A stretch of DNA of 64,000 bases from NCBI GenBank assembly GCA_963749075.1, contig CAVVLJ010000016.1, forward strand, positions 928,001 through 992,000, in the 5' to 3' direction. The position numbers were made by a program, and so were the translations under genes. The stretch comes from an uncultured Pseudomonadota bacterium (GTDB taxonomy: Bacteria; Pseudomonadota; Alphaproteobacteria; JACZXZ01). Numbering within the stretch: the stretch's first letter is position 1; each line of letters begins with the position of its first letter. The notes below the pieces were generated by a model. That model was not told the DNA's origin. It searched no databases and saw nothing but the letters and a program-made list of their open reading frames with translations. Shown piece after piece: positions 17,005 through 25,647 of the stretch.

Positions 17005-17572
<568 letters not shown>

Positions 17573-17717
17573 CGACAGCGCTTGGGTCGGCCCGCCGACG
17601 GGTCAAAGCCTAGCGCTCCACCTGGCGCAAAACCGTAAAGTCGACCTATGGGCAACATTGATTACATCCCTCGTTGTGTGTTTCAATCCAGGCTTGCAGA
17701 TGCTCTGGGGGAAGAGC

Positions 17718-18437
17718 ATGGGTGGGATGCATGAATTCCGAACCCGGTTTCCGGTGGAGGCCGGTAAGGTTGATAACGATACGGGATTGCCTAATGCGGT
17801 CACGGTCGCCTTCTGGCGTGACGTTGACAATTGGGACGGTATAGTGCCAATTGAGGAACACGTTCAACAGTGCTGCATTCGGGCCAACTTTTCAGGTAAC
17901 AAAGTGGCTCTACTGCGGGGCGAGAATCTGGGTACATCGCAGCAACCGACGAGCATTGCGAACGCCGTTGCGAGCCCAAAGACGTTGGACCCAACTCACG
18001 CTCCCCCGCCTCTACGCCACGAAGCCGAGCGATGGTTGCGCGGCATCGCATCTACTGTCGATGCGACCAGCGCCCTCACGGAATTTAAACGCCTATTCGG
18101 CTCATTCCGGCTACGAAACCATAGGATTTTTGCATTTCGAAATCCGGATAACCCTCGCAATCCTTTAGGTGTTCCAAATCTTGATATCCACTTCCGTCGA
18201 CTCGCGATACCAGGCGCGAATCCCGCCGATTATCTCATGCTCGCCTACGAGCCGGATGGCGCAGACGAGGTCCGCCAGCCCACGGCCCTCGACGCAGGCA
18301 ATGATCTCAGGAACCTGGAAATGTTCGAGCCCGGCGGCTATACACGACCCGAGGGCGGCCTTGATGGCGTACCTGAAGTCGTTACGACGCCCCCTTTGGG
18401 CCGCCAAGTGACAGTTCCGCCAAGGCAAATACGATGA
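17718..18437 (+). CDS. Hypothetical protein (island ORF1); C-terminal RxPTxxDAG...FxPGGxT...GxPEVV motif, possibly ART/toxin-like
   Basis: About 239-aa open frame in low-GC DNA; GGGGAAG before ATG 17718 (alternative ATG 17727); stop overlaps the next start (ATGA). Function is inferred only. Confidence 0.7.
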   Translation: MGGMHEFRTRFPVEAGKVDNDTGLPNAVTVAFWRDVDNWDGIVPIEEHVQQCCIRANFSGNKVALLRGENLGTSQQPTSIANAVASPKTLDPTHAPPPLRHEAERWLRGIASTVDATSALTEFKRLFGSFRLRNHRIFAFRNPDNPRNPLGVPNLDIHFRRLAIPGANPADYLMLAYEPDGADEVRQPTALDAGNDLRNLEMFEPGGYTRPEGGLDGVPEVVTTPPLGRQVTVPPRQIR

Positions 18438-19180
18438 CCAAGGCGCAATGGAAGGAGCTAATTCTTCGCGTGATTTTGACCGCAGGTGCGGAACCGCCCG
18501 ATCGGTCCGGGCGGACCCCATACGATCTCCTGACTGATCGGATGCGTTCTCTCGACAACGGCGATGACGAGTGGAACCGCGCACTTGGCGCCGTTGTAGA
18601 GATTGTGCGCAATCCCGACGGGGCGGATGTTCAGGCATGGCTGCGGCTCATAGGGTTGCTTGAGGAGCTTGCGCCATTGCCGCGCAAAGTTAGAGAAACA
18701 CTGGTTGGGTCGGTTGAAGCGCGCCAGCCCGCTAATTCGGATTTCCGTGCATACCTCATCCGAGTGCTTGCATCAGTAGACGCCCCAATCGATTGGGAAA
18801 GACTACGGCGAAGTGGCATTTCCGAAGAATTCTCACGCAACTCACCCCTGGTGTGGGCGGATGCACTTGTTTGTGGAAATCGCCTCGATGAGGCCTGCGG
18901 TATAGTTCGGCATCTTCTTTCGTCCGACACAGTTACCGCCGAATCTGTCGCAGAATTGCTCAGCCGTTGGAGCTACCGACTGCCAAACGATGAGACGAAG
19001 GAAATCTTCAACGATTTCCGGGATGCGGCAAAACCTGCGGAGCGTCATATATTTGACGAGTGGGCTAGACGTTCCGGACACGGGGAGTGGGCCTCGCGCG
19101 ATCCGCGGCCTCTAGCGAGGACGAGGCCGTCTCTTATGGGCGACGATGAGCGGGATTGGCTCCGGCAGGTTTCAGCATAA
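18434..19180 (+). CDS. Hypothetical, apparently alpha-helical protein (island ORF2)
   Basis: 248-aa ORF in low-GC DNA with ATGA coupling to ORF1; amphipathic helical pattern; no recognisable motif. Confidence 0.75.
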   Translation: MTKAQWKELILRVILTAGAEPPDRSGRTPYDLLTDRMRSLDNGDDEWNRALGAVVEIVRNPDGADVQAWLRLIGLLEELAPLPRKVRETLVGSVEARQPANSDFRAYLIRVLASVDAPIDWERLRRSGISEEFSRNSPLVWADALVCGNRLDEACGIVRHLLSSDTVTAESVAELLSRWSYRLPNDETKEIFNDFRDAAKPAERHIFDEWARRSGHGEWASRDPRPLARTRPSLMGDDERDWLRQVSA

Positions 19181-21834
19181 ACGCGGCCACGAGGGGATTA
19201 CCGGAAGTGCGCTCGATTTCGTTTGACGTTGACGATTTGCCGTACGGCGCGCTACTTCCGCAGCTCCTCGACGCGGTGTTCGCCTCGCTGGGGATTCTCG
19301 CTAATCGCGGCCTTGGTGGTAGCGGACTACAGGAGTTAGATCATGGAGCGATTAACGCGGCTTTCTCATTCCTGACCGATGCGCCGCGAGAGGGAATAAA
19401 CCGCCACCTAAGCTACCACGTCGGCCAAGAATTGCCCGGACTGTGGGCTGAGGGTAGCAGCACCAAAAAGCAAGCTGCACAACCGACACGCATGAGCCTG
19501 GTGATATGCAACTGGTTCGACGCAATCGATGACGCAAAGCGCTGGCGTATCCACCCGGCATCTACCGGCCGTCGACGCAGGGAGATGCCCGTGGCATTCC
19601 TTCCGTCGCCCCTGGCGATTCTGTATGACCTCCTGACTGATCCGGAGGACTCCTCCACGCGAGCGTATGCACAGGTTTCTATACGCAACATACTTCTTAG
19701 GTCATTTCGAATTGCTCCATCGGGATTCGGTCCCGCCCCTGAGGGGTGGAAAACCATGACCCCCGAGGATGTGTCAGTAGCGCTCTCAACGATTTCCACG
19801 TTTCATGCCGGGCGCGACAATATCCGGGCCGCGCGTCGTAGCGATATCGACAATTTCGTTCGGCACTTCATGGCGGCCAAGGGCATGATGCACTTTCGGT
19901 TCGGGTCTCGGGAAAACAAACCGACGGACGGTCTAAGGGATCGGTCCGAATACTGCAAACGGGGTATATTGCACCCGAAAGCGGAGTCATTTGAGTTCCG
20001 CCCTGATCCGGATTTGGCCCAAGTTCCGGGACTTTCCGACATCGAGAATGAAATTTGGGGAGTTCCTCTACCTGTCAGGGGAGCAGACACCCTCTTTTTT
20101 GGCGGCCTGCGGTTTTCGGAAACCGGTGGTCTGGTTGTTGGTGTGTCGGGCGGACCTGGGACTGGTAAGACTTCGTTTGCCCTGTCGTTGATCGGGCGGT
20201 TGGCGCCCTTAGGCACAAAAACACTTTATGTTACGGCTGAAGAGGCAAAGGAAGACCTCTACGCTCGAATTTCATCGATCGTAGCTGATAGGACAAAGCG
20301 GCTTAGTTTCGCGCCAAAATATGACAGAACGGGCAGCTCGGATTGGCTGTTCATCCGAAGCGGGAGAGATCCGAGTAACCCAGATCAAGAATTAGACCCG
20401 GAACTTCTGGTTAATTTTTTGGAGGATATCCGAACCATCAGATCGGAAACCCGGCAAGAATATGCTCCAAGTGCTCCACCTCCGCATCCGTGTAAATTAG
20501 TCGTTGTTCTGGACAATCTTCACAGTTTCGTTCCACATCTTCCGAGTCCCGACGAGAAAAATTCGCAGCACCCGCTTGAGCAAATTATCTCGGCCTGCCG
20601 TTCTATCGGTGCCCTTGTAATAGCAACCTTTGCTAAAGACTGGTGGGGGAGCGCTTGGATCGACTATCTTGTCGATACCGCGGTTGAACTTGAGTACGAA
20701 CAAACGAATGTCCGGGGCCATAAGCCGGCCCGTCTGATGATCCTGAGGAAAACGCGTCAGCAAATCTCACGGCCCGGCGCGCACGGGTTTCATATGTCCG
20801 GCAACTCAGGCTTTCGGATCACGCCGCAAATACCTTCCCAGCTGGACAGGAAGGCGATTTTTAAGAGTGTATTGCCGGATCGGGATTGGCAAATCGACGT
20901 GTTTCGGAGACCTTGCTTTCGCGATGAGTTGGCGGGCATGCCGGGTGCAATGAAGGGGACCCGAGTACCGGAATTCGATACCGCATCTCTCAATGATCAT
21001 CTGCGAATTGCTGTAAACTCTCACGTCCTCCTGCATGGCAAGGGGAGTGGTGGGAAAGCGGGGCTTGCGCTCAAAATCGCCGTCGCTCCGATCCTACCCT
21101 TTGTCCCCTTAAGCTCGGCTCACGTCAAACGTCGAAAGGTCCTTGTCATCTCTTTTCTATATCCGGAACAGTACTATTTGGACGTTAGCGATCATCTGCA
21201 TGCGTTGGCCAAGAGGGAATACGATGACGCCGGCGTCGCAGTTAGCGAACAAGCCCGCGTTGAAGTTGTTTCGCTGTATCCTGGATACATCCAGCCTGAG
21301 GACCTGTTTGATCGGATTATGAGGCGAATCGATAAAGCTGAACTAGAAGGCGAGCCCTTTACGGCAATTGTTCTCGATGGCCTCCACAACGTGGGCCTCC
21401 AGTTTCCGTTGCTCCAGGACTACCCAATGCTATGGCCGGCGCTATACGCAACACTTCGCCGAAAGAAGCTGACTGTCGTGACCACCCACACGATGATCAC
21501 GGTAGAGAGTGGTGTCAGCCATACTGAGTCGATTTCGATCGATGATCCGCGTTCATTGCCCCTTTTACAGGCGCTTGTTCAAGGGTCGGACTATGTCCTT
21601 GCTATAGACCGTGTGCCCAATCCAAAAACAAAATGGCCCGAAGACTATCAAGGAATTGGCGCAGCGATGGAAGTTCGGGTTGTCTCTGCAAATTACCAAG
21701 GAATTCCGCAAGACGAGCTGTTTTGGAGCCGAGACAAACTCGTTTTGTTTATAGACCAAGAGTCCCAACCAAAGCTCAGCTTACAAACGTCGCACGCAAT
21801 CCAAAGTCGCTCCAATTTATCAAGCCGAGAGTAG
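19156..21834 (+). CDS. KaiC/RAD55-like tandem RecA-fold ATPase with unknown N-terminal region (island ORF3)
   Basis: Domain 1: GGPGTGKT (20149-20172), LYVTAEE, VVVLDNL, YLVDTAVEL, RLMILRKTR...GAHGFHMSGNSGFRITP. Domain 2: HVLLHGKGSGGKA, AIVLDGLHN, SDYVLAI. Start TTG 19156 or GTG 19207. Confidence 0.8.
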   Translation: MAPAGFSINAATRGLPEVRSISFDVDDLPYGALLPQLLDAVFASLGILANRGLGGSGLQELDHGAINAAFSFLTDAPREGINRHLSYHVGQELPGLWAEGSSTKKQAAQPTRMSLVICNWFDAIDDAKRWRIHPASTGRRRREMPVAFLPSPLAILYDLLTDPEDSSTRAYAQVSIRNILLRSFRIAPSGFGPAPEGWKTMTPEDVSVALSTISTFHAGRDNIRAARRSDIDNFVRHFMAAKGMMHFRFGSRENKPTDGLRDRSEYCKRGILHPKAESFEFRPDPDLAQVPGLSDIENEIWGVPLPVRGADTLFFGGLRFSETGGLVVGVSGGPGTGKTSFALSLIGRLAPLGTKTLYVTAEEAKEDLYARISSIVADRTKRLSFAPKYDRTGSSDWLFIRSGRDPSNPDQELDPELLVNFLEDIRTIRSETRQEYAPSAPPPHPCKLVVVLDNLHSFVPHLPSPDEKNSQHPLEQIISACRSIGALVIATFAKDWWGSAWIDYLVDTAVELEYEQTNVRGHKPARLMILRKTRQQISRPGAHGFHMSGNSGFRITPQIPSQLDRKAIFKSVLPDRDWQIDVFRRPCFRDELAGMPGAMKGTRVPEFDTASLNDHLRIAVNSHVLLHGKGSGGKAGLALKIAVAPILPFVPLSSAHVKRRKVLVISFLYPEQYYLDVSDHLHALAKREYDDAGVAVSEQARVEVVSLYPGYIQPEDLFDRIMRRIDKAELEGEPFTAIVLDGLHNVGLQFPLLQDYPMLWPALYATLRRKKLTVVTTHTMITVESGVSHTESISIDDPRSLPLLQALVQGSDYVLAIDRVPNPKTKWPEDYQGIGAAMEVRVVSANYQGIPQDELFWSRDKLVLFIDQESQPKLSLQTSHAIQSRSNLSSRE

Positions 21835-21886
21835 CGACAGAGACGAAGCAACTCAGTTGGCGAATGCATGAATTTGAGGAAAGATA

Positions 21887-22916
21887 ATGAAGAAACCGGT
21901 TGCGATCGACTTGTTTGCCGGATGCGGTGGCTTGACTTTAGGCCTTGAGCAAGCTGGTTTTCGTGTTATTGGGGCTGTCGAAATTGATTCTTTGGCTGCG
22001 ACAACATACAGAACCAACCACCCCCGTGTGTTGGTAAAGCAAATGGACATTCGGCAGCTCCCGGCAACGCAGTTACGGCGGGACCTTAAACTCCGTCGTG
22101 GGCAACTCGACCTTCTCGCTGGGTGTCCGCCGTGCCAAGGTTTCTCCACGCTGCGCACGCGCAATGGTTCGAATAGGAACAGAGACGCGCGAAACGACTT
22201 GGTTTACGAAATGCTCCGCTTCACGAGAGCGTTTCGCCCGAGAGCCATAATGATGGAGAACGTCCCCAAGCTTCAAGATCGTAAGTCATTTAAAGACCTT
22301 TGCAATGCACTTCGGCTACTCGGTTATCAGCTAAACTCCGACATCAAGGATGCGGGTCTTTACGGTGTTCCCCAACGCCGGCAACGTCTTATTCTTCTGG
22401 CCGGCCGCGGCTTCAACATACAGTTCGCGATCGAGTTCGCGCCGCTTTCGTACTGTGCGGGGAGCGATCGGTCGAATGGCGAAGCCGGGCAATAGCAAAG
22501 ACGCACTTCATAACCTCCCAGAAAAGAAACGGTCGCTGAGGGTGCGTAGGCTGATAACGGACATTCCCAAAGATGGCGGGAGCCGCGGCGACTTGCCCAA
22601 GAGACGGCAGTTGCCGTGTCACAAGAGGAGCGACGGCTTCAGCGATACGTACGGCCGCATGGCCTGGAACAAGGTGGCGCCGACCATAACAAGCGGTTGC
22701 TTTAATCCATCAAAGGGGCGTTTCCTCCACCCAGAACAAAATCGTGCCATTACTATGCGGGAAGCAGCACTCCTTCAAGGGTTCCCTCGCGATTACTCGT
22801 TCGAACTATCGCGGGGAAAGGAGGCAATAGCATTGATGATCGGCAACGCCCTCCCGCCAGAGCTCATAAGACGGCATGCGTTACAAATTCGCGCGGCCTT
22901 GAGAGAGCATAGTTAG
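21887..22916 (+). pseudogene. dcm: C5 cytosine DNA methyltransferase split by a +1 frameshift near 22436
   Basis: Motifs I (DLFAGCGG), IV (GCPPCQGFS), VI (MENVP) and VIII (GVPQRRQR) in the first frame; TRD and motifs IX-X (YGRMAW..APTIT, REAALLQGFP, IGNALPP) in the second frame. Removing one T at 22436-22437 restores a single ORF. Confidence 0.88.
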
Positions 22917-22936
22917 TTCACCGAATGTGGTAGGTG

Positions 22937-23399
22937 ATGGCCAACGTTTTTTCGCGAGACAAACGCTCCGACATCATGTCGAGGGTAAAGAGCCGTGGGA
23001 ACCGAGCCACGGAGCTCCGCCTAATGCGCATATTTCGCGAGTACGGTATCCGGGGCTGGCGGCGCCACTCGGCAATTTTTGGAAACCCTGATTTTGTTTT
23101 TCCGGCAGCGCGTCTGGCTGTGTTCGTGGACGGATGCTTTTGGCATAGCTGTCCTACTCACGGCAGCGTCCCCTCCAGTAACTGTGCGTTTTGGAGTCTG
23201 GAAGCTAGACCGGAATCGGATGCGGGATCGCCAAGTGCGTCGGAAATTGTGCCGCTTAGGATGGCGCGTGCTTCGCGTGTGGCAGCACGACCTTAGAGAG
23301 CCCGATCGCGTGGTGCGCCGGGTTACCCGATCAATAGACTCGGTTGCTACTGAGCCGCGAGGCGGAAACGGGCGGCGGCGGAAAGGTCGGAGCCGGTAG
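22937..23399 (+). pseudogene. vsr: Very-short-patch repair endonuclease split by a +1 frameshift near 23200
   Basis: KRSDIMSRVKSRGN, GNPDFVF, VFVDGCFWHSCP in one frame; KLDRNRMRD...LGWRVLRVWQHDL in another; one extra G at 23200-23201. Confidence 0.88.
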
Positions 23400-23439
23400 G
23401 CGTCCAGGGTTTCCCCGACGTTGTCCAAGTTACAGAGTT

Positions 23440-23555
23440 GGTCGTGTAAGGGCGGCTTAAAGATAAAGGGCGAGGTTCTTGCCGGTCTCGAGCGGCGGCG
23501 GCGCTTGGGTTCGGAGGAGAAGGCTGGGATCGTCGCGGAGACGATGCTGCCGGCG
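23440..23555 (+). mobile_element. IS66-family tnpA 5' remnant
   Basis: EVLAGLERRRRLGSEEKAGIVAETMLP matches the IS66 TnpA N-terminal pattern EVxxGxERRRRWSxEEKxxIVAE; truncated at the repeat junction. Confidence 0.65.
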
Positions 23556-24116
23556 GCGCCTACTCGGCGGCCTCCTCGGCCGGAATCGCGGGCGCCGGGT
23601 CCGCGTGCCGGAAGCCGCCCGACTGGCGCTGCCAGAGGCGCGCATAGCTGCCGCCGCTCGCCAAGAGCTCGGCATGGCCGCCTTCCTCGAGGATGCGCCC
23701 GTGGTCGAGCACGACGAGGCGGTCCATGCGCGCGATGGTGGAGAGCCGGTGCGCGATGGCGATCACCGTGCGGCCGCGCATGAGGCCGTCGAGCTGCTCC
23801 TGGATCGCCGCCTCGACCTCGGAATCGAGGGCCGAGGTCGCCTCGTCGAGGACGAGGATGGGCGCGTTCTTGAGGATCACCCGCGCGAGTGCGACGCGCT
23901 GGCGCTGCCCGCCCGAGAGCTTGACGCCGCGCTCGCCCACGTGGGCCTCGAAGCCGCGGCGACCTTGCCAATCCTCGAGCCCCTCGATGAACTCGAGCGC
24001 GTGCGCGCTCGCGGCCGCCTGCCGCACCTCCTCCTCGCTCGCCTCCGGCCGGCCGTAGCGGATGTTGTCGCGGATCGAGCGGTGGAGGAGCGAGGTGTCC
24101 TGCGTCACCATGGCGA
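23549..24116. repeat. Direct repeat copy 2 (568 bp), forming the 3' end of the intact ABC exporter
   Basis: Gap-free alignment to 17005-17572. Confidence 0.95.
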
Positions 24117-25431
24117 TGTGGGCGCGCAGGCTCTCCTGCGTGACGTGGGCGATGTCCTGCCCGTCGATCGTGATGCGCCCGCCTTCGAGCTCATAGAAGC
24201 GCAGGAGCAGGTTGACGAGGGTCGACTTGCCGGCACCCGAGCGCCCGACGAGGCCGACGCGCTCGCCGGGCTCGATCGCGAGGTCGATGCCGTGGAGCAC
24301 GCCGCGCTCGGTGCCGTAGCCGAAGCGCACCCGCTCGAAGCGGATGCGGGCCGCGCCCACGCGCAGCACCGCGGCATCCGGGCGGTCCGTCAGCTGCCGC
24401 GGCACCGCGATCGAGCGCATGCCGTCCTGCACGACGCCCACGTTCTCGAAGATCGAGGTGACGTTCTGCGCCACCCAGCCGGCGATGTTGGCGATCTGCC
24501 AGGTGAGCGGCAGCGCCATGGCGACCGTGCCCACGGCGATGCTTCCGTCGTTCCACAGCCAGACCGCGGCCGCTCCCGTGCCGACGACCATCGTGGCATT
24601 GAGCGTCGTGAGCCCCAGGCTGAAGAAGGTGATCACGCGCAATTGCCGGCGGAAGCTCTCGGTATGGTCGTCGATCGCCGCGCGCACGAAATTGTCCTCG
24701 TCGCGCGGCCGCGCGAAGAGCTTGACCGTGACGATGTTCGTATAGCTGTCGACGACCCGGCCGGTGAGGGCCGAGCGCAGCTCGGACATCCGCCGCGAGC
24801 GTTCGCGCAAGCGGGGGACGAAGTAGCGCAGCAGCGCCACGTAGCCGGCGAACCACAGCAGCACGGGGAGCGCCAGGCGCTTGTCGTTCGAGCCCATCAT
24901 CAGCACGGCGCCGCCGCCGTAGACGAGGATGTACCAGACCGCGTTCGTCGACATGACGAGGCTCTCGCGCAACGCCGGACCCGTCTGCATGACGCGGTTG
25001 GCGAGGCGGCCGGCGAAATCGTTCTGGAAGAAGGCCCAGCTCTGCCGCACCACGTGCCAGTGGCTCTGCCAGCGGATGAGGTTGCTGAGGCCCGGATTGA
25101 TGGCCTGGTTGGTGATGAGGTTCTGGAGCAGGAGGGCCGCCGGCCGGGCGAGCAGCAGCACGAGCGCCATCCCGACGAGCAAGCGCCAGGCCTCGGCAAA
25201 GAGCGCGCCCGGCGCGTGACTCGAGACGAGGCCCACCAGCCGGCCGATGAAGAACGGGATCGTGGTGTCGAGAGCCGCCACCGTGAAACCGGCGGCGAAG
25301 AGGGCGACCACCAGCCCGCGCGCCTGCCGGGCGTAATGCCAGTAGAAGGCCATGAGCCCTGAGGGCGGCGGCGCCTCGGGCGAGAGTGCCGTGGGGACGA
25401 GCAGGCTCTCGAAGAAACGGAAGACGCGCAT
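23560..25431 (-). CDS. ABC exporter, fused permease/ATPase (MdlB/MsbA-like)
   Basis: N-terminal TM helices, [44 protein letters not shown]. Confidence 0.93.
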   Translation of the reverse strand: MRVFRFFESLLVPTALSPEAPPPSGLMAFYWHYARQARGLVVALFAAGFTVAALDTTIPFFIGRLVGLVSSHAPGALFAEAWRLLVGMALVLLLARPAALLLQNLITNQAINPGLSNLIRWQSHWHVVRQSWAFFQNDFAGRLANRVMQTGPALRESLVMSTNAVWYILVYGGGAVLMMGSNDKRLALPVLLWFAGYVALLRYFVPRLRERSRRMSELRSALTGRVVDSYTNIVTVKLFARPRDEDNFVRAAIDDHTESFRRQLRVITFFSLGLTTLNATMVVGTGAAAVWLWNDGSIAVGTVAMALPLTWQIANIAGWVAQNVTSIFENVGVVQDGMRSIAVPRQLTDRPDAAVLRVGAARIRFERVRFGYGTERGVLHGIDLAIEPGERVGLVGRSGAGKSTLVNLLLRFYELEGGRITIDGQDIAHVTQESLRAHIAMVTQDTSLLHRSIRDNIRYGRPEASEEEVRQAAASAHALEFIEGLEDWQGRRGFEAHVGERGVKLSGGQRQRVALARVILKNAPILVLDEATSALDSEVEAAIQEQLDGLMRGRTVIAIAHRLSTIARMDRLVVLDHGRILEEGGHAELLASGGSYARLWQRQSGGFRHADPAPAIPAEEAAE

Positions 25432-25647
25432 GCTTTGCGATCCTCGTGGCGTGGTCGTGGCGCCGCCCGGGCGCATGTCCTCATGCGAGATACGAGCGAC
25501 GCCGGTCAGGCCGGCGCTTCCCGGGCGGCAGCGGCGGCGGCGCCCGCGTCGACCATTGGACGATCGCAGATTGAACGCCGCAGTTTACTTCGTCGCGGCG
25601 CTGAGTTCGAGAAAAAGCAGGCGGCGACGGCGGCCGGCACGTGCGCG

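Follow-up and report, generated by a model that had tools for sequence, protein, structure and literature searches.

Discrimination of self from non-self by DNA methylation is the oldest known form of bacterial immunity. To our knowledge, the restriction halves of the known systems rely on a small set of motors, comprising superfamily 2 (SF2) helicases, the AAA+ protein McrB and motors of the SMC (structural maintenance of chromosomes) or GHKL types, together with recognisable nucleases; in the CglI and NgoAVII restriction systems, this nuclease is of the phospholipase D (PLD) type. According to the available excerpts of four reports (PMC4267653, PMC4267654, PMC5861437, PMC5737866), CglI and NgoAVII have, besides their methylase, an R-protein and an ATPase that is a subunit of its own, with an SF2 DEAD-family (DEAD-Z1) helicase as the motor and with both site recognition and nuclease activity residing in the R-protein. 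Here, we analysed a 64,000-nucleotide stretch of DNA (hereafter the window) from an uncultured alphaproteobacterium (contig CAVVLJ010000016.1 of assembly GCA_963749075.1, positions 928,001 to 992,000, forward strand), and describe in it a five-gene island in which an ordinary DNA methylase, as found next to its relatives as well, is paired with a KaiC-class double ATPase and two unannotated protein families, one of which has a confidently predicted fold and no solved relative. On balance, and only just, we favour the reading that this island is an undescribed, mobile, self-contained, ATP-dependent and methylation-linked restriction-type defence module, whose mechanism and defence function we infer. 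The five genes are the following.

17718..18437, + strand: ORF1 (open reading frame 1), 239 aa, member of an uncharacterised family, candidate effector
18434..19180, + strand: ORF2, 248 aa, helical protein, predicted partner of ORF1
19156..21834, + strand: ORF3, KaiC-type double ATPase, 892 aa when read from a TTG start (the gene caller's start at 19207 gives 875 aa)
21887..22916, + strand: C5 cytosine DNA methylase (dcm-type), split between the frames 21887-22495 and 22350-22916 (Pfam DNA_methylase, 1.7e-45 and 3e-12)
22934..23399, + strand: Vsr very-short-patch repair endonuclease, split between the frames 22934-23296 and 23079-23399 (Pfam Vsr, 9.4e-19)

Running 5′ to 3′ on the + strand in the order ORF1, ORF2, ORF3, C5 methylase and Vsr, these genes fill an island of 5.9 kb (~17.6-23.55 kb) with a GC content of 0.48-0.60 across 17.5-23.5 kb, versus 0.66-0.73 in both flanks within the window. 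ORF1 and ORF2 overlap by an ATGA, and ORF2 and ORF3 by 25 bp if the TTG start is used; 52 bp separate ORF3 from the methylase gene, and 17-20 bp separate the latter from the Vsr gene. As far as the excerpts describe CglI and NgoAVII, the locus resembles them in that a stand-alone methylase is coupled to a restriction half made of several subunits, one of them a separate ATPase on which it depends; that these subunits form a restriction half is, for the locus, our proposal. Those systems combine modification of the type II kind with nucleotide hydrolysis of the type I/III kind, a logic that we propose here as well. Unlike in those systems, the ATPase is of the tandem KaiC/RecA class and is accompanied by two subunits of no known family and by no recognisable nuclease, and neither Pfam nor PADLOC found a DEAD, Z1 or PLD family in ORF1, ORF2 or ORF3. 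The locus is also comparable to BREX, DISARM, Druantia II, MADS, Mza and the PADLOC candidate systems, in which, likewise, a methylase on a mobile island is joined by several proteins that are not nucleases or are poorly understood; it differs from BREX, DISARM, Druantia II, MADS and Mza in that the cassette contains no PglZ, PLD, SF2 helicase, GHKL or Z1 protein. The BREX, DISARM, Druantia, MADS, Mza, Hma and PDC candidate models of PADLOC-DB 2.0.0 gave no match to ORF1 or ORF2, and only a weak mad8 match to ORF3. With classical type II restriction-modification (R-M) systems it shares a stand-alone methylase with the catalytic motifs present, while no known nuclease fold or family that could represent the cognate endonuclease was found in ORF1, ORF2 or the N-terminal domain of ORF3 using four hidden Markov model (HMM) libraries and, for ORF1, Foldseek. 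A description of the cassette was not found in the full-text literature; supplementary tables, such as lists of candidate systems, lie outside this search and may bear on novelty.

Predicted structures of the cassette proteins

ORF3 consists of a family-specific N-terminal domain of ~290 aa followed by two KaiC/RecA-type ATPase domains. The Pfam KaiC family matched residues 307-378 (E 2.9e-10), and a profile of the ORF3 family, searched against the PDB, matched KaiC (8zn5, E 2.4e-10) in the first domain only, the second domain not being found by sequence. Using Foldseek, full-length KaiC chains were superposed on the AlphaFold2 (AF2) model of ORF3, which is of moderate confidence (predicted local distance difference test, pLDDT, 76.7), over both domains (580-623 columns, E ~1e-21, TMt 0.61-0.68, probability 1.00), with KaiC 7s66 giving E 2.4e-21 and TMt 0.67 over 582 columns. 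Therefore, the assignment of ORF3 as a double ATPase holds.

The ORF3 family obtained by word-indexed search comprises 14 proteins, including the window's own; a word search with the N-terminal domain added one protein, and tblastn of ORF3 gave 0 matches in 72,556 plasmids and 50,697 phage records. In domain 1, G332, G335, T336, G337, K338, T339, S340, E363 and D453 are invariant in 14 of 14 sequences and E362 is near-invariant, which corresponds to a Walker A motif (G-P-G-T-G-K-T-S), an E-E pair and a Walker B Asp. In domain 2, G628, S631, G633, K634 and G636 are invariant and the Walker B residue D741 is near-invariant across the 14 sequences, and S-F-L-Y-P occupies the place of the Glu pair. 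Judged from these motifs, domain 1 has everything needed for ATP hydrolysis, and domain 2, which keeps the P-loop and Walker B and lacks the E-E pair, thus probably only binds nucleotide. ORF3 is like KaiC in its two tandem RecA-fold domains, the first carrying Walker A, the E-E pair and Walker B, and unlike KaiC in its extra N-terminal domain of ~290 aa and in the missing E-E pair of domain 2. The genomic context also differs from that of KaiC of the circadian clock, as ORF3 lies with a methylase on mobile elements, and no KaiA or KaiB family was matched among the neighbouring genes examined in the window and in the relatives' loci; in a passage citing Makarova (2017), KaiC-like proteins are described as archaeal 'signal hubs'. 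Among the PADLOC 2.0.0 families, ORF3 matched only mad8 (E 6.8e-4, 17 bits), over 82 residues at the P-loop. Its N-terminal domain matched no nuclease family in Pfam, PADLOC, NCBIfam or PHROGs, and the best ESM Atlas cluster for this domain (0.76), that of the FokI recognition domain, was set aside as being at chance level by that tool's own figures.

ORF1 and ORF2 belong to no family in Pfam, NCBIfam, PHROGs or PADLOC 2.0.0. The ORF1 open frame extends upstream to 17061, but does so through the high-GC flank, and the start at 17718 aligns with the first Met in 91% of 93 family rows. Searching a profile against 1.84 billion representatives gave 375 ORF1-family clusters at E≤1e-3, 243 of them at E≤1e-10; every name given to the eight clusters that were looked up is 'hypothetical' or 'uncharacterized protein', and no meaningful family match was obtained when 93 members were scanned against Pfam. 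Among 400 other genomes of the phylum, the ORF1 profile found one strong match (genome G273) and two weak ones (E ~1e-6); the latter are surrounded by genes of the cytochrome, ABC and nitrogenase kinds, and both were considered irrelevant. The AF2 model of ORF1 is of high confidence (pLDDT 95.5), and Foldseek found no match to it in the PDB or among viral structures at E≤1e-3; the ESM Atlas yielded nothing usable. Within the family, G207 and E220 are invariant, and T189, D192, G206 and T209 are kept in at least 94% of the rows. The conserved polar residues T189, D192 and T209 and the invariant E220 adjoin a P-G-G loop, and together with it they form a polar cluster that looks like an active site. 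The window's ORF1 departs from the L-P-C-R-L-G-L motif of the family; its closest relatives have the same variant, and it is thus a subfamily trait rather than decay.

ORF2 is fast-evolving and has no solved relative in the PDB. The sole conserved motif in its family alignment is a P-D-R-x-G-x-T-P loop at residues 21-28. When ORF1 and ORF2 were modelled as a complex, a score of 0.90 was obtained, compared with 0.00 for the best of three controls; in a benchmark, 58 of the 80 solved complexes attained the mark applied, as did 2 of the 110 mismatched pairs. The model runs agree in at least 94% of the contacts, with a partner pLDDT of at least 84, and place ORF2 residues 19-28 at the interface against ORF1 residues 192-196. 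As neither protein has a solved relative, the score does not come from structures already familiar to the predictor. The model thus supports, rather than demonstrates, that ORF1 and ORF2 bind each other.

These results bear on most of what a first-pass annotation, made from the letters of the window alone, had claimed. Its description of five co-oriented, tightly packed genes filling a low-GC island agrees with the coordinates, spacings and GC values given above. Its tandem KaiC/RAD55-type ATPase is upheld by the Pfam KaiC match, the PDB profile match and the full-length KaiC superposition, and its Dcm and Vsr assignments by Pfam DNA_methylase in both halves of the gene and by Pfam Vsr. That ORF1 is held by ORF2 is what the complex model predicts as well, and its statement that no named system corresponds to the locus is consistent with PADLOC 2.0.0, which reports only the methylase and Vsr apart from the weak mad8 match at the ORF3 P-loop.

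Linkage of the cassette in other genomes

A pattern scan identified loci with a full-length ORF3 relative in three of nine cases from species genomes, two of seven from metagenomes and two of two from viral contigs; the remaining 11 scanned loci match the P-loop region only. Together with the window, eight loci with a full-length ORF3 were therefore available, namely the window itself and those of a gammaproteobacterial metagenome-assembled genome (L001), a Mucilaginibacter (L002), a Bradyrhizobium (L003), two metagenome contigs (L010 and L011) and two viral contigs (L017 and L018). ORF1, a middle gene and ORF3 occur in the same order in six of the eight, and L010 starts inside ORF2 at a contig end. 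Homology of ORF1 is supported in all five cassette loci other than the window at ≥99.9% probability (hhalign against the family profile), and a ninth locus (L025) carries ORF1 and then ORF2 (hhalign 100% and 99.8%) before its contig ends. Homology of ORF2 is supported for L001, L010, L011, L017 and L025, and for L003 by way of L017. The order of ORF1 and ORF3, with a gene between them, is kept at ORF3 identities of 33-37% and across phyla. Since the same cassette is found in unrelated genomes, its arrangement is not due to chance. The ORF1, ORF2 and ORF3 relatives of L011 and the proteins of L018 matched 0 PADLOC 2.0.0 families at E≤1e-5.

A DNA methylase adjoins the cassette in six of the eight loci. 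It is a C5 methylase in the window, L002, L010 and L011, each time with a Vsr, and an N6_N4 methylase in L003 and L017, which have no Vsr; in L001, a Vsr fragment is the last feature before the contig stops. A branch with 97/97 support in the ORF3 tree separates the N6/N4 pair from the C5/Vsr loci, with L018 on the N6/N4 side, and sister ORF3 proteins carry sister methylases (58% identical between L010 and L011, 47% between L003 and L017). The methylase plus Vsr that the first-pass annotation had listed with ORF1-3 is not their defining partner, as two relatives have an N6/N4 methylase and no Vsr. Co-occurrence of ORF1-3 homologs with a DNA methylase, which the annotation had put forward as a check, was seen in other genomes and on mobile elements. 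Three outcomes that it had named as speaking against a new system, namely a lack of such co-occurrence, a match to an already named system and one ORF being an ordinary type II endonuclease, were examined, and none of them was found.

As to the surroundings of these loci, L011 is flanked by the conjugation genes TraC/TraU, L010 has an integrase as a neighbour, L017 adjoins phage lysis genes, and L018 is inside a Mu-like phage. In L002 (5380-16348), the cassette stands between a Vsr gene and the C5 methylase gene, followed by MzaB and MzaC and with a TraG-like coupling protein upstream; either two methylation-linked systems share one methylase/Vsr pair there, or one has inserted into the other. 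In L018 (4393-9187), a distant ORF3-type tandem ATPase (29% identity) is encoded between baseplate and tail genes, and this locus may be a sister system reusing the ATPase. An ORF near the integrase island of L010 (7875-8936) has a weak match to Cas_GSU0054 (E 0.0014), which is below the cut-off and probably due to chance.

Proposed mechanism and competing explanations

If the island is a restriction-type defence module, the stand-alone, type II-like methylase would mark the host's own DNA, and Vsr would repair the T:G mismatches arising from deamination of 5-methylcytosine. ORF1, ORF2 and ORF3 would together constitute the restriction half. In it, ORF3, as a double RecA-fold ATPase of the KaiC/RadA/DnaB class that presumably forms a ring, would provide ATP-driven control or translocation, and its private N-terminal domain could dock DNA or partner proteins. 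ORF1 and ORF2 would form a tight heterodimer as the effector, in which the conserved ORF2 loop is predicted to pack against the D192-G194 segment of ORF1, so that ORF2 might gate or complete the putative active site. On encountering unmethylated incoming DNA, the presumed target, the ATPase would use ATP to engage or release ORF1, whereby the invader would be damaged. A more specific version, which we regard as doubtful, is nuclease-free restriction, in which a hexameric ATPase of the KaiC type reads the methylation state of DNA, either directly via the ORF3 N-terminal domain or via the ORF1-ORF2 dimer, and licenses ORF1, which would be an enzyme of a fold with no solved relative, to modify or damage unmethylated DNA chemically instead of by classical cutting, with ORF2 as a built-in gate.

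Should the module defend, it would bring a new motor class and a new effector into restriction biology within a compact five-gene system of ~5.7 kb, and KaiC-like ATPases outside clocks would gain a concrete and testable job. Should the nuclease-free version be true, it would constitute a new enzymatic principle of restriction and the first defence role of the KaiC architecture in bacteria.

Several observations weigh against a restriction-type defence module. The four HMM libraries, a PDB sequence search and Foldseek revealed no domain in ORF1-3 that is a nuclease or otherwise acts on DNA, and one and the same cassette type would have to share its recognition sequence with C5 methylases in some loci and with N6/N4 methylases in others. 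The middle gene of L002 is only positionally equivalent to ORF2 (hhalign 2.9%), and the C5 methylase of that locus may belong to the MzaB/MzaC system. In L018, the partners of the ATPase, a 467-aa protein without a family and a 225-aa winged-helix protein, are unrelated to ORF1 and ORF2 (hhalign <1%), and no methylase was present among the five neighbouring ORFs tested, six further ORFs lying outside this test. The sample is small (8-9 loci) and its loci are not fully independent. In addition, dcm and vsr are both out of frame in the window's assembly.

The alternative that survives best, though we hold it to be unlikely, is a guard or abortive-infection system resembling PARIS or PrrC, as the first-pass annotation had proposed with the ATPase ring as its putative sensor or switch. 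In such a system, the methylase or its methylation would be watched, and a putative ORF1 toxin held by ORF2 would be freed by the ATPase when a phage interferes with methylation or with the complex, so that the infected cell would die and the phage DNA would not be cut. Such a system would fit the methylase adjoining the cassette and the lack of any nuclease domain found, and the modelled heterodimer buries the sole conserved loop of ORF2 against the D192 segment of ORF1, as an antitoxin would. As in the DarT and RES toxin-antitoxin pairs, ORF1 is small and has its tightly bound (as modelled) partner encoded directly downstream, and its best, non-significant Foldseek neighbours are toxins of the ADP-ribosyltransferase (ART) fold, namely DarT (7omu, E 0.12), RES toxins and the cholera toxin A chain. 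However, these fold matches are at chance level, with E 0.12 or worse, TMq ≤0.26 and 0 matches at E≤1e-3, and an ART identity was rejected when it was assayed by profile: comparing the ORF1 family with 13 DarT sequences by hhalign yielded a probability of 0.12%, and 0 Pfam ART families were matched among 93 members at E≤1, leaving ART activity as a low-odds lead. Furthermore, the clades of the cassette have been co-inherited over the long term with their own class of methylase, which is the prediction for a cognate R-M system, whereas a guard could in principle watch any methylase.

Type II restriction endonucleases are notoriously undetectable from sequence, and the island might accordingly be an ordinary type II R-M system in which ORF1 or ORF2 is an endonuclease too diverged to be recognised and ORF3 an accessory or passenger; we consider this quite improbable. 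The methylases agree with it, being stand-alone and type II-like, with PADLOC MTase_II matches down to E 3.5e-53 in the window and of E 1.7e-71 in the C5 methylase of L002. The continued linkage of ORF1 and ORF3 in order, at the low identities and across the phyla described above, argues instead for one machine. The confident ORF1 model also has no PD-(D/E)xK, HNH, GIY-YIG or PLD match in the PDB by Foldseek, and Lys and His are absent from the conserved residues of ORF1.

Very improbable, in our estimate, is a non-defence function for the mobile element; the methylase might, for instance, protect the DNA of the element in new hosts and be combined with a RecA-class helicase module for the element's replication, establishment or anti-defence. 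The positions of the relatives in a conjugative element, beside an integrase and on viral contigs would accord with such a role, as would the matches of the ORF3 P-loop region to DnaB-like helicase families in PHROGs (E 1.1e-6). Against this, the window's island consists of five genes only, and no integrase, replication or transfer gene was found in it by its ORF list and Pfam; the cassette of Vsr, C5 methylase and ATPase also has the layout of ATP-dependent R-M systems such as CglI/NgoAVII, as far as the excerpts describe them.

Integrity and borders of the island

The two halves of the Vsr gene are both matched by PADLOC Vsr, and from the translations the frameshifts were placed at one extra T each, at ~22436 in dcm and ~23199 in vsr. 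An independent view of the island was obtained from a public soil metagenome run (X1), whose contigs hold 83% of the island's sampled words and, at a depth of ~7, cover 5484 island bases. The contigs differ from the window at seven positions (20891, 22383, 22436, 22943, 22948, 23199 and 23439), comprising five substitutions and two single-base omissions, and the omissions at 22436 and 23199 are exactly the placed dcm and vsr frameshifts. Without the extra T's, dcm is open over 342 aa and vsr over 154 aa, and both align end to end with their relatives; the 342-aa methylase shows F-A-G-C-G-G, P-P-C-Q-G-F-S, E-N-V and G-N-A-L-P-P, and aligns fully with the methylases of L010 and L011. Since both extra T's are absent from the independent X1 contig, the frameshifts are probably not real, and the five-gene system in the window is probably intact; the repair of frameshifts that the locus had been thought to need is thus probably unnecessary.

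All seven differences lie at 5′-TC, and six of the seven at the C of TCG, a position that makes up 5% of the covered bases (277/5484), and the window has a T or an extra T each time. This pattern is compatible with errors in the consensus sequence where a cytosine motif is modified, bacterial DNA modification being described as a cause of nanopore read errors in the excerpt available of one report (PMC11610603); it would also agree with deamination-type mutations in a variant strain. If the consensus-error reading is true, an apparent dcm or vsr 'pseudogene' in an assembly can be an artefact at a modified motif. The least probable explanation of all, that the island is a decaying remnant in the window's genome with the methylase and Vsr inactivated by frameshifts and ORF1-3 silent or crippled, can appeal to the two genes being out of frame and to six of the seven differences falling within the 1.27-kb dcm-vsr piece, but is opposed by the full-length frames of the X1 contig, by the TC/TCG pattern just described and by the retention of every invariant family residue in the window's ORF1, ORF2 and ORF3.

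As part of the best explanation, that of a mobile restriction-type defence module, the island would be horizontally acquired, in line with its foreign GC content. In 30 relatives, only the flanks of the island were matched, among the matches listed. No tRNA gene or Rfam family was found near the island, promoter- and terminator-like sites at the island did not exceed the shuffled expectation, and no RNA runs were present among the sequencing runs listed as holding the island. The borders are made up of the following features.

17005..17574, - strand: left repeat copy, an orphan 3′ fragment of an ABC-transporter gene (ORF 17016-17606; Pfam ABC_tran, for the C-terminal part)
23400..23548, no strand: right-end spacer, holding the start of a short ORF (23421..) that is cut off by the repeat
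23549..24118, - strand: right repeat copy, the 3′ end of an intact ABC-transporter gene at 23560-25476 (Pfam ABC_membrane and ABC_tran)

The first ~45 residues of the ORF starting at 23421 presumably resemble the N-terminus of the insertion sequence (IS) transposase orfA. An IS remnant at 23421-23548 was nevertheless rejected, as the 48-aa piece has no Pfam match and the genome of the window holds no second copy of it. A direct repeat of ~570 bp encloses the island, with 96-97% identity between the left and right copies; its core, found by the repeat search, is 97% identical (17005-17304 versus 23549-23848), and alignment extends the match to ~17574 and 24118. This layout looks like an integration at the 3′ end of the ABC-transporter gene, with one repeat copy brought by the incoming DNA.

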